From the UHGV virus genome UHGV-0124295: 13,031 nucleotides of DNA, one strand, 5' to 3'. The stretch is from a virus. The notes beneath the pieces were generated by a model that was not told the origin of the DNA, ran no database searches, and worked only from the letters and a program-made list of their open reading frames with translations. Within the stretch, counting starts at the first letter, position 1. Each line of letters starts with the position of its first letter. Made by a program: the position numbers and the translations under genes. Below, piece after piece: positions 3,074 through 9,383 of this stretch.

Positions 3074-4450
3074 TCATACGTCAGCCCCTTGTGCATATCG
3101 TCTGCCACGTGCAGCGGGTGCATTTGATGTTGTGCAAATCTGTCTGGCTTCATCCTGATCACATGCAACAAAGTGTCCGTTGCAGAACCGCTGGTAAACC
3201 GTACCAAGCGAGCCAAAACGGTTTTTCGTCACAATGATTTCAGCAAATGGCGCGGCGCTACTGTTCTCGTCATATACCGCTTCCCGATAGAGCATGATGA
3301 TTGAGTCTGCGTCCTGTTCAATGCTTCCTGAATCACGCAAATCTGCGTTTGTCGGGCGTTTGTTTGGTCGCTTCTCAACATCGCGTGAAAGCTGACTTAG
3401 GGAGATAACTGGCGTTTTCAGGTCTTTCGCCATCGCCTTCAGGCTTCCGGAGATGTGAGCAATTGCGAGGTCGTTGCGGTCTGCTTTCGGCTTCTCAATC
3501 AGGCCAAGATAATCCGCCATGATGAGTGAGAGGTTTGGATTTTCCTGTTTGTGCCGTTCTGCGATTGAGCGAATTTCTTCGACCGATAACCGCGAGGCAT
3601 CGACTACCCATACATCCAAATCTGCAAGCTGACTCATGCCGTTAGCAACACGCGCCCAGCCTTCGTCATCCATCGATGCAGGATTTCGCAGTACGCTAAC
3701 CGACATCCTCCCGGCGTTGGCAATGCTTCGCTCTGCAATCTGCAATGCGCTCATTTCCATCGAGAAAATCAACACTCCGCGCCGGACATCAGAACCAGGA
3801 ATAACGCGGCTTGCCACGCCTTCGGCAATCTTCAGCGCCAGTTCGGTTTTCCCCATACCAGGACGAGCGGCGATAATCACCAGGTCTTCTGCGTTCATCC
3901 CTCCGGTGATAGCGTCAAGTTCTTCGATTCCGGTCTTCAGGGTATCTGACTCTTCTCCGTTCCTCAGACGCCTGTCAAGCGTGTCAGTGTAGTCGGTGAT
4001 GATTTCCCCTAACCGTACAGGTTTAACCTCGTCACGGGGCTTTCTGATGGCTGAAAGACGCTTTACAAGCTCATCCATCGCCTGACTCGATGCGTCGATG
4101 GTTCCGCTCTGAATTGGTTCACGCATTTCATCCATGATTTCCAGCACCAGACGGCGGTGATAGTTATCCGCGACCATTCCGGCATATCCCTTCAGGTTTG
4201 CGGCACTCGGGCAGTTTTTGCTGGTCATCAGGATTGACGTGAAATGCTCCTCTCCGCACGCCTCGGCAACCATCAGCGCGTCGATTAGGTTTCTGTTTCT
4301 CGCCTGCTTGCGGATAACCTCGAAGGCTTTCCGGTAGAGCGGAATTGAAAACGCTTCCGGCTCAAGCGTTGCCAGAACGTCACTGGCGGTTGGAGTTAAT
4401 CCACCAATCAGCAGGCCACCGATAACGCTCGCTTCGATATCCTGTCTCAT
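3074..4450 (-). CDS. Replicative DNA helicase, DnaB family (P22 gp12-like)
   Basis: 458-aa ORF with Walker A ([16 protein letters not shown]) and DnaB-like N-terminal and RecA-like C-terminal architecture. ATG 4450..4448 overlaps the stop of the O-like gene (ATGA). Confidence 0.85.
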
Positions 4451-5394
4451 GCAATCCCCCTGTCTGCAAACTTCCCTTCCCGAACTCCCGTTAACGAATC
4501 TTCCCTCAGCAGGTAATCAAAATCAGCTGTCCAGCCCGTGTCGTTGTCTCCGAAGTAAAACGGCTTGGCCTGATGCACAAACGCCCTGACATACGCTCTG
4601 AAACCGTCCACGTTTGGCGTTTTCAGTTGCGGGATGATTTTCTTCAGGCGGCGTTTGCGTTTCTCGTTGACCGCAACAGCGTGTGGAAGTCTGTCACCGA
4701 CTTCGGTGTTGTAGGCGTTCAGGAAGGATTCGTAGTCGATTCGTTCTGCCTTGCGACGTTCAGGTTTAACCTGCCCATCGCCTCCCCCATTGGGGGGTAG
4801 GGGGGTATTATTTATATTCTTGTTAATACCTTCTTGTTCATGATGTGCGGTTGTTTGTGCGGCTTCATGTGCGCTTTCATGTGCGGCATGTACTCTGAAA
4901 GCCGCGCCATTGCTGGCTTCGTCATGTGCGGCATCATGTGCGGTTGTTTGTGCGGCTTCATGTGCGGGTGAATTGTCCATTTTTTGAGCGTATTCATGGT
5001 AATTTGTGATGGTGATCACACGACCTTTTTGCTTCTCTCCATCAATGGAGATCATCCCCTCTTTCACAAAAACCTGAAGCATCCGCTCAACCTGATCACG
5101 GCTTGCCGGCTTGCCATGCCTGTCGCATAACTGAAGACCTAAATCAGCTGCTGTCACAACCAGTTGACCGGGTTGCAGATGCCATTCATGACCTTTGAAA
5201 TTCGCTTTGTATGGCTTTCTGGCGGCATTCAGGAGAAGGTTTTCCCACAGGGTGCGAAGATAAACATCTTTCGCCCATGACTGTTTCAGAATGCTCCGGT
5301 ACAACGGAATGTAACCAGTTTTCTGGTTCTCCATCCTGTTGCTCCTGCGCTCGTGTGCGGCGCTGAAATCGTAGATTTTTGCTGTATTGCTCAT
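4447..5394 (-). CDS. Replication initiator, lambda O / P22 gp18-like
   Basis: 315 aa; N-terminus [10 protein letters not shown] resembles lambda O (MTNTAKILNF). The central low-complexity repeats ([17 protein letters not shown]...) are encoded by the iteron DNA. Position upstream of the helicase fits an initiator-helicase module. Confidence 0.8.
4844..4967. repeat. Iteron array of the putative replication origin inside the O-like gene
   Basis: Eight copies of a TGTGCG(G/C) core at a 12-bp period in two clusters (4844, 4856, 4868, 4880 and 4925, 4937, 4949, 4961), followed in the gene direction by an AT-rich stretch (4806-4830) and a C5-ATT-G6 inverted repeat (4784-4805). Confidence 0.6.
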
Positions 5395-6093: not shown

Positions 6094-6279
6094 TTATGCC
6101 GCTTTGCGGTAAGCGCTTTCTTGATACTTCAGGGCGCCAGCTGTAACGACTTCCAGTCGATAGGCGTCTTTCTCTGGGATGACTTCCTTCCACTGAGAGA
6201 CTGCTGCGTCGCTAATGCCTAACGCTTTAGCTACAGCACGCTGGGTTCCGAAGTGGTCGATAACATCTTTCTTGTACAT
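6094..6279 (-). CDS. cro: Cro repressor (P22-type)
   Basis: 61 aa, MYKKDVIDHFGTQRAVAKALGISDAAVSQWKEVIPEKDAYRLEVVTAGALKYQESAYRKAA, matching P22 Cro from memory. RBS GGAGCGAG; divergent from c2. Confidence 0.85.
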   Translation of the reverse strand: MYKKDVIDHFGTQRAVAKALGISDAAVSQWKEVIPEKDAYRLEVVTAGALKYQESAYRKAA

Positions 6280-6359: not shown

Positions 6360-7010
6360 ATGAAAACTCAATTGATGGGAGAGCGCATTCGCGCTCGGAG
6401 AAAAGAACTCAAGATCAGACAGGCCGCACTTGGAAAGATGGTCGGCGTGTCTAATGTTGCCATATCTCAGTGGGAACGCTCTGAGACAGAGCCAAATGGA
6501 GAGAATCTTCTCGCCCTGGCTAATGCGTTGAAGTGTTCCCCTGACTATCTGATGAAAGGAGAGGAAAGTCTTTCAAACATTGCCTATCACAGTAGGCATG
6601 ATCCAAGAGGGTCATACCCTCTGATTAGCTGGGTGAGCGCAGGATGCTGGATGGAAGCTGTAGAACCATATCATAAGCGTGCAATAGATAACTGGTACGA
6701 TACAACCGTAGACTGTTCAGAAGATTCGTTTTGGTTGGACGTGAAGGGAGACTCAATGACGGCTCCGGCCGGTCTCAGTATCCCTGAAGGAATGATAATA
6801 CTCGTCGATCCTGAAGTAGAGCCGCGTAACGGGAAACTGGTAGTTGCAAAGCTCGAAGGAGAAAACGAGGCAACTTTCAAGAAGTTAGTTATTGATGCAG
6901 GCAGGAAGTTTCTAAAACCACTTAACCCACAATATCCGATGATCGAGATCAACGGAAACTGCAAAATCATCGGCGTAGTTGTCGATGCAAAACTAGCAAA
7001 CCTTCCATAA
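6360..7010 (+). CDS. c2: Prophage repressor, P22 C2 / LexA-like S24 peptidase family
   Basis: 216 aa; N-terminal HTH (VGVSNVAISQWERSE), Ala-Gly autocleavage site (SAG) and C-terminal Ser/Lys peptidase fold (GDSM ... VVAKL). Resembles the P22 c2 repressor from memory. Confidence 0.88.
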   Translation: MKTQLMGERIRARRKELKIRQAALGKMVGVSNVAISQWERSETEPNGENLLALANALKCSPDYLMKGEESLSNIAYHSRHDPRGSYPLISWVSAGCWMEAVEPYHKRAIDNWYDTTVDCSEDSFWLDVKGDSMTAPAGLSIPEGMIILVDPEVEPRNGKLVVAKLEGENEATFKKLVIDAGRKFLKPLNPQYPMIEINGNCKIIGVVVDAKLANLP

Positions 7011-7033
7011 GGGGGCATTCGCCCCTTTTTTTA
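7011..7033 (+). terminator. Intrinsic terminator after c2
   Basis: GGGGC-ATTC-GCCCC hairpin followed by TTTTTTT immediately after the c2 stop. Confidence 0.6.
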
Positions 7034-7053: not shown

Positions 7054-7129
7054 AAAACTTAAGTTACGAAAGAAAATTTAAGTTTTCTTCAAAAATACTC
7101 TTGACCATTAATTAAAGAGATCTTAAATT
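7054..7129 (+). promoter_or_regulatory. oL operators and pL promoter
   Basis: Operator-like 18-mers ATTAAAGAGATCTTAAAT (7111-7128), ATTTAAGTTTTCTTCAAA (7076-7093) and a CTTAAG-containing site near 7056-7073. -35 TTGACC (7101-7106), 17-nt spacer, -10 TAAATT (7124-7129). Confidence 0.55.
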
Positions 7130-7175
7130 TAAGCCATCAGCAGGACGCTGGAAGCCAAACGGAACAGATTGGCAG

Positions 7176-7217
7176 GCTCTTTAACATTGATGGGATTGTC
7201 CCGCCGAAATGCGGGAA
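7176..7217 (+). promoter_or_regulatory. nutL-like site (boxA GCTCTTTAACA plus boxB hairpin)
   Basis: GCTCTTTAACA (7176-7186), a 12-nt spacer, then TCCCGC-CGAAAT-GCGGGAA (7199-7217); same module as nutR but on the opposite strand. Confidence 0.6.
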
Positions 7218-7527
7218 CCAAAGAGTAGTTGGCTTTGGGGTGACGTGAAGTGCAGCTGCACGACGGCAACCGGAAGATAAGCACCCGGCGCGTCACCGCC
7301 AAAGTCAATTCCATAGGCGAAATGCAGCCGCCAAACACAGCCAATGCTGCACATGCAACAGGAGGATTTATGTGAATGCATAACTTCAAAACCGAGGTTA
7401 ATTAAATCTCTCGATCCGAGCATTGACCTATTAGGTGGCGAGATGCTCTTTCTGCCCCTCAGTTCGAGGGGCCAGAAACCACTTTGCAATCACTATCAAT
7501 TCCAAAGTTGTTTCATCGGAGGTCAAC

Positions 7528-7800
7528 ATGACAGTAGTCATTACATATCTGGCTGACGATAACACCAGAAATCGCCGCAGAGCACGCAGACAGGCTCAAC
7601 GTGAACAGGCAATGCAAGAACAGCGACTGGCGCGAAAGATTGCGCTAAAGCTCTCTGGTTGCGTCAGAGCAGATAAAGCAGCATCACTCGGAAGCCTTCG
7701 CTGCAAGAAGGCAGATGAATGCAGCGGAAGTATTTGCCTGCCAAACGTAGCCATTTACACGGCAGGCTACCGGAAATCAAAACAACTGACGGCGAGGTAA
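7528..7800 (+). CDS. N: N-like transcription antitermination protein (P22 gp24-like)
   Basis: Track ORF 7435..7800; the real start is ATG 7528 with RBS GGAGGT (7518-7523). MTVVITYLADDNTRNRRRARRQAQREQAM... has an arginine-rich motif; the C-terminal ...GYRKSKQLTAR resembles P22 gp24 from memory. Confidence 0.72.
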   Translation: MTVVITYLADDNTRNRRRARRQAQREQAMQEQRLARKIALKLSGCVRADKAASLGSLRCKKADECSGSICLPNVAIYTAGYRKSKQLTAR

Positions 7801-7803
7801 GTG

Positions 7804-8028
7804 ATGAATCAGACATACATTCCATCATGCTTGAGAAATCTGCCAAAGCAGAAAGCAAAGCCCCGCAAGCAAGCCATAAAGGACGCTAAGGCAGAGGTTA
7901 TTGATCAAGCAATACAATTGCTCAGGGAGGAGTTAAGAAGTGGCAAGCTAGAAGGAATGATGATGCCCTATCAGCGCGGATATCTATCGGCGATTAGTAA
8001 GTTGGAAGTATTGAAGAGTGAATTATGA
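7804..8028 (+). CDS. Hypothetical basic helical protein (74 aa), ral/gene-17 slot
   Basis: ATG 7804 with RBS GAGG (7794-7797); the track start at 7801 is a GTG. No recognisable family. Confidence 0.5.
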   Translation: MNQTYIPSCLRNLPKQKAKPRKQAIKDAKAEVIDQAIQLLREELRSGKLEGMMMPYQRGYLSAISKLEVLKSEL

Positions 8029-8090
8029 GCTATCTGGAATTTCCGGATGGTTCATTGTTTTGGCAGCAAACCACTTATTTGAGGTGAGAT

Positions 8091-8561
8091 ATGACAATAT
8101 CATGGAGCGTACCTTTTCCTGAATCAGAAACTGAACATGATGGAATGCCTGTTTTCTGGAGATTCCAGGCGACAGTTGAAGAAGATGGAATCAAAATATT
8201 CGCACTTCAATATATAGCTTTTCATCAGACAGAGCATTATGCATGGTTGGTTCCTGCGCATTGGATTGTTAATTTTAAACCAGCACCAAATCAGTGGTTA
8301 CAGGAATGGAAACAAAGGAGAAATAGATATGCAATTAAGAAAGTAGCAAAAAATGCAGAAAGATCTTTTGCATTCCCAACGAAGAAACTTGCCATTGAGA
8401 GTTTATTGCGCCGGAAGAAATACCATTTAATGAGAATCAAACAAGATTTGGCTGTTGTATCAACTCTTGTTGATGGGATGAAGAATATTGATACATCAAC
8501 ACCAGATATTGAATATAACTTTGGACACAACCAAGAAACAGAAAATTGGGTATTTTATTAG
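8091..8561 (+). CDS. Hypothetical protein (156 aa), low-GC moron
   Basis: Strong RBS GAGGTGAG before ATG 8091. Visibly AT-rich relative to flanking phage DNA. No recognisable motifs and no obvious transmembrane segment. Confidence 0.6.
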   Translation: MTISWSVPFPESETEHDGMPVFWRFQATVEEDGIKIFALQYIAFHQTEHYAWLVPAHWIVNFKPAPNQWLQEWKQRRNRYAIKKVAKNAERSFAFPTKKLAIESLLRRKKYHLMRIKQDLAVVSTLVDGMKNIDTSTPDIEYNFGHNQETENWVFY

Positions 8562-8665
8562 TACGAATAAGCACTGTGTATTCATTCCAACGAGTGAATA
8601 CACGGAGCAATGTCGCTCGTAACTAAACAGGAGCCGACTTGTTCTGATTATTTGAAATCTTCTTT

Positions 8666-8691
8666 GCCCTCCTATGTGAGGGCGATTTTTT
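8666..8691 (+). terminator. Intrinsic terminator (tL-like) after the 156-aa ORF
   Basis: GCCCTC-CTATGT-GAGGGC hairpin followed by GATTTTTT. Confidence 0.6.
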
Positions 8692-8704
8692 GACGGAGTG
8701 AACG

Positions 8705-8953
8705 ATGATAAAAACTGATTATCCTGCAGAACTTAAACAAAAAGTAATAACAGCAATTAAATGCTCTTTTATCTCATGCCGTACAGATGAAGAACGATAT
8801 GTCGTTGAGTGTGCAATTGTCGAGTTTCTCACAGCGATGGAATTTACCGCTGCAGAATCAATAGATGTATTAAAGCAATCAGACGGAAATGATATTGAAA
8901 CGGATGATGTTATTGACCGACTAATAAAATCATTCGAAGAAGAAATAGAGTAG
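8705..8953 (+). CDS. Hypothetical small acidic protein (82 aa)
   Basis: RBS GGAG 6 nt before ATG 8705. AT-rich coding sequence; highly acidic C-terminus (DGNDIETDDVIDRLIKSFEEEIE). Confidence 0.55.
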   Translation: MIKTDYPAELKQKVITAIKCSFISCRTDEERYVVECAIVEFLTAMEFTAAESIDVLKQSDGNDIETDDVIDRLIKSFEEEIE

Positions 8954-9036
8954 CCGCCTGAGCGCGGCTTTACCGCATACCAATAATGCTTCACGAGAGG
9001 CATTTTCGTTATGCAATCAAATATAAGGAGTTACCC

Positions 9037-9171
9037 ATGATGCACTTTCAGCTCGCGGGTAGCGGCGTCATGTCCGCTTTCTACCCGCACGAATCTGAAT
9101 TATCACGCCGAGTTAAACAATTAATCAGAGCAGCAAAGAAACAACTGGAGGCGTTATGCGCAATGAAATAG
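9037..9171 (+). CDS. cIII: CIII-like protein (FtsH inhibitor, stabilises CII)
   Basis: MMHFQLAGSGVMSAFYPHESELSRRVKQLIRAAKKQLEALCAMK. RBS AAGGAG 6 nt upstream. The core helix resembles lambda CIII (ESLLERITRKLRDGWKRLIDIL) from memory. The track ORF 8986..9171 has an upstream extension that is rejected. Confidence 0.65.
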   Translation: MMHFQLAGSGVMSAFYPHESELSRRVKQLIRAAKKQLEALCAMK

Positions 9172-9308
9172 CCATCAATCACCAGATGCTTCGTGCAGCA
9201 CAGAACAAAGCAGTAATAGCCAGATTTATTGGTGATTCCAAAATGTGGCTTGAAGCAAATAAAGCGATGAAATCAGCTATCAACCTTCCGTGGTATCGCA
9301 GGAAATGA
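9156..9308 (+). CDS. kil: Kil-like small protein (50 aa)
   Basis: Not in the ORF track; MRNEIAINHQMLRAAQNKAVIARFIGDSKMWLEANKAMKSAINLPWYRRK. RBS GGAGG (9147-9151). Overlaps the cIII 3' end as kil does in lambda; the IA.FIGD.KM motif resembles lambda Kil from memory. Confidence 0.5.
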   Translation: MRNEIAINHQMLRAAQNKAVIARFIGDSKMWLEANKAMKSAINLPWYRRK

Positions 9309-9383
9309 GTTTTACAGATAACTGGTCAGACGAAGAATTCATTCGTCAGATGAAAGAATTAATCGGTAACGAAGGAGATATTC

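Follow-up and report, generated by a model that had tools for sequence, protein, structure and literature searches.

HK97 gp45 as a probable promoterless cargo gene in a variable slot of the lambdoid early-left operon

Introduction

The virus genome UHGV-0124295, a stretch of 13,031 nt that is called the window here, is a lambdoid immunity and early region. An ORF for a protein of 156 aa lies at positions 8091-8561 of its + strand. Its AT-rich composition, its strong ribosome-binding site and the hairpin terminator that follows it had led to the original prediction of a moron, that is, a discrete gene cassette with a terminator of its own, expressed from the prophage and serving lysogenic conversion or exclusion. 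The question raised by this locus is, therefore, whether the ORF is an autonomous unit of promoter, gene and terminator, or whether the signals around it belong to the operon in which it is embedded.

Identity, spread and conservation of the ORF

The ORF was confirmed: it starts with ATG, runs from 8091 to 8561 on the + strand and encodes a protein of ~18.6 kDa that is predicted to be soluble. The product matches phrog_1636 along its entire length (residues 1-156 of 156, E=1.5e-111). Protein comparison identifies it as an ortholog of HK97 Gp45 (NP_037731), of the 933W protein ST933Wp19 (NP_049479) and of RefSeq WP_000167585, with 98.7% identity to the HK97 protein and 99.4% to that of 933W over all 156 residues. 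Residue 3 is an isoleucine in the window protein, whereas HK97, 933W and the other orthologs have a lysine. Unnamed proteins of 98.7-99.4% identity are encoded by 933W, phi24B, BP-4795, Min27, Stx2 phage 86 and many Stx1a/Stx2a phages, and H-19B contains a ~99% identical copy as an unannotated ORF. The gene, hereafter gp45, is thus carried by major Shiga-toxin phages (933W, phi24B, BP-4795 and H-19B), as well as by roughly a tenth of the complete E. coli genomes (563 out of 5426, ~10%, for the stretch 8029-8700 at ≥80% coverage). A gp45-type protein is encoded in 87 phage records. No source gives the protein a name, the annotations reading hypothetical or prophage protein throughout. A literature search under HK97 gp45, its accessions and its locus tags found no paper mentioning the gene, and it is not mentioned in a review-type paper on early-left operons. 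Its sequence is also absent from the portion of the supplementary data consulted for the accessory-gene screen of Silas et al., which included ral.

Full-length orthologs of 156-163 aa, with identities down to 55% and 40 invariant residues, were found in Escherichia, a Salmonella phage, Pectobacterium, Brenneria, Cronobacter and Rosenbergiella. In comparisons with the Pectobacterium and Brenneria orthologs, pS was saturated (0.8-0.9) and pN was 0.18-0.27, while close variants gave dN/dS values of 0.06-0.16. By its full-length orthologs and these substitution patterns, gp45 is a true coding sequence under purifying selection.

The ORF had been described as much more AT-rich than the neighbouring N and cIII regions. 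With a GC content of 36.1% (28% at third codon positions, GC3), it does contrast with N (50.9%), cIII (47.4%) and the window as a whole (46.9%), its neighbour genes ranging from 47 to 51% in GC and from 46 to 53% in GC3. The AT-rich zone is not confined to gp45, though, because the next ORF, at 8705-8953, has a GC content of only 34.5%.

The early-left operon around gp45

The - strand of the window encodes a DnaB-type helicase (3074-4450), an O-like replication protein (4447-5394), a cII-type protein and Cro (6094-6279). On the + strand, the order is a cI-type repressor gene, N, a 75-aa ORF, gp45, an 82-aa ORF, cIII, kil, a Rad52-type annealase gene and ssb. The cI-type gene (6360-7010) has its own terminator at 7009-7028. 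The N-type antiterminator gene of the pL operon (Pfam N_peptide, E=7e-14; PHROG 271) was assigned to 7528-7800; the listed ORF begins at a GTG at 7435, and the ATG at 7528 agrees with the annotation of phage ECP1. It is followed by the 75-aa ORF (7801-8028, PHROG 5305, unknown function), which separates N from the leader of gp45 (8091-8561, PHROG 1636). Beyond gp45, the 82-aa ORF (8705-8953, + strand, PHROG 14587, labelled anti-restriction protein) occupies the ea10 position of lambda.

Accordingly placed among N, cIII and kil and co-oriented with them, gp45 lies in a lambdoid early-left operon. The same holds for HK97 and 933W, where gp45 is in the same operon and is followed by the same 3' element, annotated in HK97 as a putative terminator. 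The arrangement differs in that gp45 comes directly after N in these two phages, which lack the 75-aa ORF, while in the window this ORF is inserted between N and the leader. In the prophages of Pectobacterium and Brenneria, the ~60%-identical orthologs likewise belong to the early-left operon, with the same orientation as its other genes, and immediately precede xis-int.

Two further features of this region were observed. A terminator-like hairpin of 14 pairs (8025-8055), followed by TTGTTTTGG, overlaps the stop codon of the 75-aa ORF; its RNA fold has a z of -2.8, it was seen only in contexts with the 75-aa ORF, and it may be a weak tL1-like terminator. The 82-aa ORF is AT-rich like gp45 (GC 34.5%, GC3 23%), and its site looks like a second variable cargo slot.

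The terminator downstream of gp45 belongs to the lambdoid backbone

The hairpin and T-tract predicted at 8666-8691 are present, with GCCCTC at 8666-8671, GAGGGC at 8678-8683 and six T residues at 8686-8691. A terminator scan reported the same site as an 8-pair stem (8664-8685), one of nine terminator-like sites in the region, compared to 3.7 ± 2.0 in shuffled sequences. The RNA of the whole intergenic stretch, 8562-8704, folds with a z of -4.8 relative to shuffles into three hairpins, the last of which is the terminator.

This terminator had been taken as gp45's own, an attribution that does not hold. The 121 nt at 8571-8691 are 97.5% identical to positions 33925-34045 of lambda (J02459), which lie between ral (34087-34287) and ea10 (33536-33904). 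A similarity search retrieved the element in 327 phage records, whatever gene precedes it, compared to the 87 that encode gp45. Lambda and phage 21, in which the element is annotated as a terminator, both lack gp45. The stretch 8571-8691 hardly varies when the window is aligned with HK97, 933W, E. coli E89 and phage ECP1, the last of which keeps it although other sequence replaces gp45. The terminator, therefore, does not travel with gp45. Its near-identity to lambda identifies the site at 8664-8691 as tL2a, a terminator of the lambdoid backbone in which the small RNA PreS (LPR1) ends. In both lambda and the window, tL2a/PreS ends in a GC-rich hairpin with a U-tract, after structured and unpaired segments, and bounds the ral slot on its 3' side, ahead of the ea10 slot; it is preceded by ral in lambda and by gp45 in the window.

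LPR1, since renamed PreS, is an Hfq-bound sRNA of lambda, ~88 nt long and processed to ~68 nt, that is encoded between ea10 and ral and ends in tL2a, one of the sites at which transcription of the early-left operon terminates (bioRxiv 10.1101/2024.10.31.621285). It activates the translation of dnaN, represses alaS and supports lambda DNA replication; it was not detected in the lysogen but was present 10 min after a cI857 lysogen had been induced, and it was located by BLAST in 2,537 genomes (bioRxiv 10.1101/2024.10.31.621285). We recognised PreS in the window from its DNA similarity to lambda and from this literature. Its approximate equivalent, an 88-nt stretch that ends with the last T, is at 8604-8691 (+ strand), the 5' end following from the published length, and folds with a z of -4.2. 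A search of Rfam 15 returned no family for the window or for the 3' element, the best match being a chance-level RyhB (E=0.15).

A shared leader and no promoter in the module

At the other end of the gene, the near-consensus Shine-Dalgarno sequence of the original prediction was borne out: positions 8081-8087 read GAGGTGA and match the anti-Shine-Dalgarno sequence over all 7 nt, the GAGG core lying 6 nt before the ATG. The motif is part of a 29-nt translation-initiation leader, GGCAGCAAACCACTTATTTGAGGTGAGAT (8062-8090, + strand), which is identical in the window, HK97, 933W, E89 and ECP1, despite differing upstream sequence. Between the different upstream contexts, of which there are at least five, homology begins 29 nt ahead of the ATG; they are N directly in HK97 and 933W, the 75-aa ORF in the window, E89 and ECP1, and at least three more in viral contigs. 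In ECP1, the ATG after the identical leader opens a 28-codon orf28 of the lambda type, followed by ral, and lambda itself has a diverged copy of the leader before orf28.

A shared homology that starts only 29 nt before the ATG leaves space for a ribosome-binding site, but not for a promoter and a leader. Consistently, a consensus scan of the + strand from 7129 to 9311 found no sigma-70-like site. Most likely, then, the gp45 cassette has no promoter of its own, as judged from these sequence comparisons, while a weak or non-canonical promoter within the variable upstream gene is conceivable.

These two results bear on the reading of gp45 as a moron expressed in the lysogen, which would be transcribed in the repressed prophage from a promoter to a terminator of its own and would serve superinfection exclusion or abortive infection. 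The cassette is AT-rich, discrete and exchangeable, as such a gene would be, and gp45 is very common in E. coli prophages. We nevertheless consider this reading unlikely, since the conserved module has no promoter, its terminator is the shared tL2a/PreS element and the RNA ending at tL2a is absent from lambda lysogens (bioRxiv 10.1101/2024.10.31.621285). Lysogenic conversion or exclusion requires expression in the prophage, for which we find no support.

Unrelated genes share one slot between the leader and PreS

When viral contigs were scanned for exact copies of the 31-mer formed by the leader and the ATG, at least 120 loci (L103-L222) were found. Among those listed, the 31-mer opens at least 10 different first ORFs: Gp45 in ~57 loci, orf28 in ~38 and, in the others, eight further ORFs of 52-149 aa. 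These alternative first ORFs encode proteins of 83, 107, 121/149 (with hydrophobic segments), 147, 60, 52, 62 (DUF7167) and 87 aa. Between the ATG and the PreS hairpin, the loci listed have 214 to 1536 nt, which corresponds to one to three stacked genes. In E. coli STEC384 (L093, 1565-2722), a gene of the Nmad5 (nucleotide modification associated) family is stacked directly upstream of gp45, with a leader before each of the two. Other than Ral and Nmad5, the alternative cargos are all of unknown function.

The lambda genes orf28 and ral are in the same position as gp45, between a homologous leader and tL2a/PreS. Like gp45, ral is a small, non-essential gene of the pL operon, and the two are nearly mutually exclusive: among the 120 leader loci listed, 56 have gp45, 22 have ral and one has both, compared to ~10 expected if they were independent, a difference that is only indicative because the listed loci are related to one another. 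The proteins themselves differ, Ral having 66 aa and a predicted architecture unlike that of the 156-aa Gp45, with no sequence relationship between them. Homology of Gp45 to Ral was also considered and ruled out by profile comparison (hhalign probability 0.13%), with no match in NCBIfam or Pfam.

The claim of a discrete gene cassette thus stands: gp45 is compositionally foreign and exchangeable, with conserved joints at both flanks and at least 10 ORFs found behind the same leader. What the moron label adds to this holds only in part. With the morons of HK97- and lambda-type phages, which are genes inserted between backbone genes together with a promoter and a terminator of their own, gp45 has in common that its base composition is foreign, that its boundaries are discrete and that related phages differ in carrying it or not. 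It differs from them in that its module contains no promoter and its terminator belongs to the backbone, and in being co-oriented within an early operon and not inserted into the late operon. Most probably, the cassette is a cargo without a promoter that occupies a variable slot of the pL operon, and not an autonomous unit of promoter, gene and terminator. Our literature searches found no description of this leader-cargo-PreS slot.

Within the slot, the 3' element stays constant and is more conserved than any cargo, while the content and length of the cargo vary freely. This would also fit an ORF that serves mainly as a spacer or carrier to bring transcription to PreS, with a protein of little function. 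Such a role is highly improbable for gp45, given the purifying selection acting on it (pN 0.18-0.27 with saturated pS, dN/dS 0.06-0.16), the 40 residues kept invariant across 55-99% identity and the wide phage family that shares its fold and motifs.

Ral (lambda, L011 1388-1588, - strand) and several unrelated cargos (L204, L221 and L211) all end in KAA before the stop codon, which suggests that the 3' recombination joint of those cassettes is inside their last codons. The gp45 cassette has a different 3' joint from that of Ral and the other KAA-ending cargos.

Gp45 heads a wide family of phage proteins

A profile of the close Gp45 family was searched against 1.84 billion cluster representatives. 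At E≤1e-3, 87 proteins were retrieved, about 60 of them full-length (105-170 aa) and sharing the pattern YR...G[IL]...hET...K..K....RFAF.TK..A...L..RK..QL.HLKR. The family comprises at least 87 clusters at 50% identity, from phages of Enterobacterales, Vibrio, Rhizobiales, Burkholderiales and Bacteroidota. Its PHROGs (1636, 13631, 25384 and 28215) are all labelled unknown function.

The remote-homology searches and structure prediction called for by the original prediction yielded a confident model and no characterised relative. The 156-aa protein had been reported to contain no recognisable motif, and Pfam, NCBIfam and PADLOC indeed gave no significant match to it, its best PADLOC match being a chance-level Cas1 (E=0.018). 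When 61 family members were compared with the same three collections, no significant or recurring match appeared, even at E≤5. Searches of the PDB with the single sequence and with the profile gave nothing below E=0.1, and a fold search of the PDB with the AlphaFold2 model gave no match. Clear homology to a characterised protein was thus looked for, and none was found. As had been stated, the protein also has no transmembrane segment: its GRAVY is -0.53 and it contains no hydrophobic stretch.

AlphaFold2, run on a 61-sequence alignment, produced a model with a pLDDT of 96 and a pTM of 0.82, which replaced an initial poor model built on 20 close homologs (pLDDT 59). The model predicts an N-terminal beta-sheet of three long antiparallel strands (19-30, 33-46 and 50-55), followed by two short helices, a short strand (83-86) and a 33-residue helix (98-130). 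The C-terminal tail is acidic and, in the model, non-regular, albeit confidently placed. Residues 61-125 are very basic (17 K/R, pI 11). This middle segment, with a conserved beta-hairpin and the long helix, carries the family's most conserved motif, K..K....RSFAF.TK..A...L..RK..HL.R..QD. Invariant basic residues are K84, K87, R91, R107, K109 and R115, and a heptad spacing in residues 113-130 points to a possible coiled-coil dimer. An AP2 or lambda-Int-arm DNA-binding domain, a candidate raised by the RSFAF.TK..A motif, was ruled out by hhalign. Fold relatives of the model in BFVD come from many phages, several of which we take to be virulent. With a confidently predicted structure and no solved relative, Gp45 is at the head of a wide, phage-only family.

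Most distant relatives are encoded among co-oriented small early genes, in arrays such as those of Pantoea LIET2, Klebsiella phi_KPN_H2, a Vibrio phage and IMG/VR contigs. Occasional neighbours include genes for a DNA methyltransferase, RdgC, RecE, KilA-N and integrase: RdgC and a C5 methylase in one contig (L096), a DNA methyltransferase in LIET2, and RecE with a replication initiator in the Vibrio phage. No partner gene recurs in these neighbourhoods. Two relatives (P0075 and P0115) depart from this layout: in phage contigs of ~40 kb, they are encoded on the opposite strand within head/tail (structural) modules. The opposite-strand members are at 2919-3365 of L005 and 8001-8935 of L006. In L006 and L007, the family member is followed by two small co-oriented ORFs of 56 and 99 aa.

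Proposed expression and function of Gp45

Because the module contains no promoter and, in lambda, the corresponding 3' end is transcribed only after repressor inactivation, delayed-early transcription from pL is the most economical account of gp45 expression. Upon loss of the cI-type repressor, the operon would be transcribed from pL, and the N-modified RNA polymerase would read through both the upstream hairpin and tL2a. Translation of Gp45 would start from the near-consensus Shine-Dalgarno sequence in the leader, and PreS would form the 3' end of those transcripts that stop at tL2a. This course of events, put together from the anatomy of the locus and from lambda data, is the most likely one. 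We regard gp45 as an accessory gene of the lambdoid pL operon, probably expressed lytically from pL and placed in a hypervariable slot with two joints, the 5' one being the 29-nt leader with its strong ribosome-binding site and the 3' one the tL2a region encoding PreS/LPR1.

The wider family speaks to both timings. The distant relatives in early-gene arrays of other phages favour a role in the lytic cycle and count against expression from the lysogen. P0075 and P0115 point the other way, as opposite-strand inserts in structural modules are the classic moron layout and imply autonomous transcription there, unlike in the lambdoid copies. A precedent for lysogen expression within the same operon also exists, the sieB genes of lambda and P22 being transcribed in lysogens from within the early-left operon. 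SieB-type exclusion proteins are membrane proteins, whereas Gp45 has no membrane-spanning segment, and no PADLOC model recurs among the 61 family members, which again argues against exclusion or abortive infection.

Returning to lytic expression from pL, the Gp45 protein made early in infection could bind nucleic acid, or a host protein that handles nucleic acid, through its basic hairpin-helix region. In the slot that ral occupies in lambda, it could then serve counter-defence or host takeover. Such an early effector, proposed from the location of the gene, the charge of the protein and a few methylase and Nmad5 neighbours, is a tentative suggestion. The broader proposition, that Gp45 founds a phage-restricted family with a fold absent from solved structures and is a new kind of counter-defence or host-takeover effector, and that the slot is a lambdoid counter-defence hotspot, is more speculative still and somewhat doubtful. 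If it were true, the slot would hold a dozen uncharacterised alternative effectors, with ral among them.

An early protein directed at the phage itself, for example a small regulator that binds DNA or RNA, or a factor assisting phage replication, recombination or DNA modification in concert with neighbouring early genes, would draw on the same basic middle segment with its most conserved motif. It would also suit the early operons in which family members are found near recombination, methylase and replication genes (L096, LIET2, the Vibrio phage and, next to xis-int, Pectobacterium and Brenneria). This alternative seems rather unlikely, in view of the lack of a recurring partner gene and of any known DNA-binding fold detected in Gp45. 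Moreover, gp45 is dispensable, because most phages that carry the PreS element lack it, and it swaps with unrelated cargos in a single slot, as is typical of accessory and not of core functions.

As it stands, the finding is an ordinary one, since gp45 and its terminator are both already known objects: the first is catalogued as a hypothetical protein of HK97 and Stx phages, and the second is the lambda tL2a/PreS element. What the analysis adds is the anatomy of the slot, the correction concerning the gene's own terminator and the place of Gp45 at the head of its family. The slot, with its fixed joints and at least 10 interchangeable small genes, ral being the only one with a known role (anti-restriction), is a natural place to seek new early-acting phage effectors. 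A very confident model without a solved relative likewise makes Gp45 a cheap and well-defined target for a function screen. The same anatomy means that many different mRNAs deliver the PreS sRNA as their 3' end.

Sequence features of the PreS element

Directly 5' of the PreS equivalent, RNA folding predicts a perfect 12-bp hairpin (8576-8603, + strand). It is invariant in lambda, phage 21, HK97, 933W and ECP1 and may set the 5' end of the sRNA or a processing site. Relative to lambda, the window element has changes at 8653 and 8672-8675. The first is a G-to-T change in the unpaired segment that links hairpin 2 to the terminator and is private to the window, being found in none of lambda, HK97, 933W, E89 and ECP1, while the second group is in the terminator loop. 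The element is multi-copy, occurring at up to six places per E. coli genome. Many IMG/VR contigs (L016, L026, L046, L056, L061, L076, L090, L092 and others) end between a few and ~100 nt past the gp45 stop codon, a pattern that fits a break of the assemblies at this multi-copy element.
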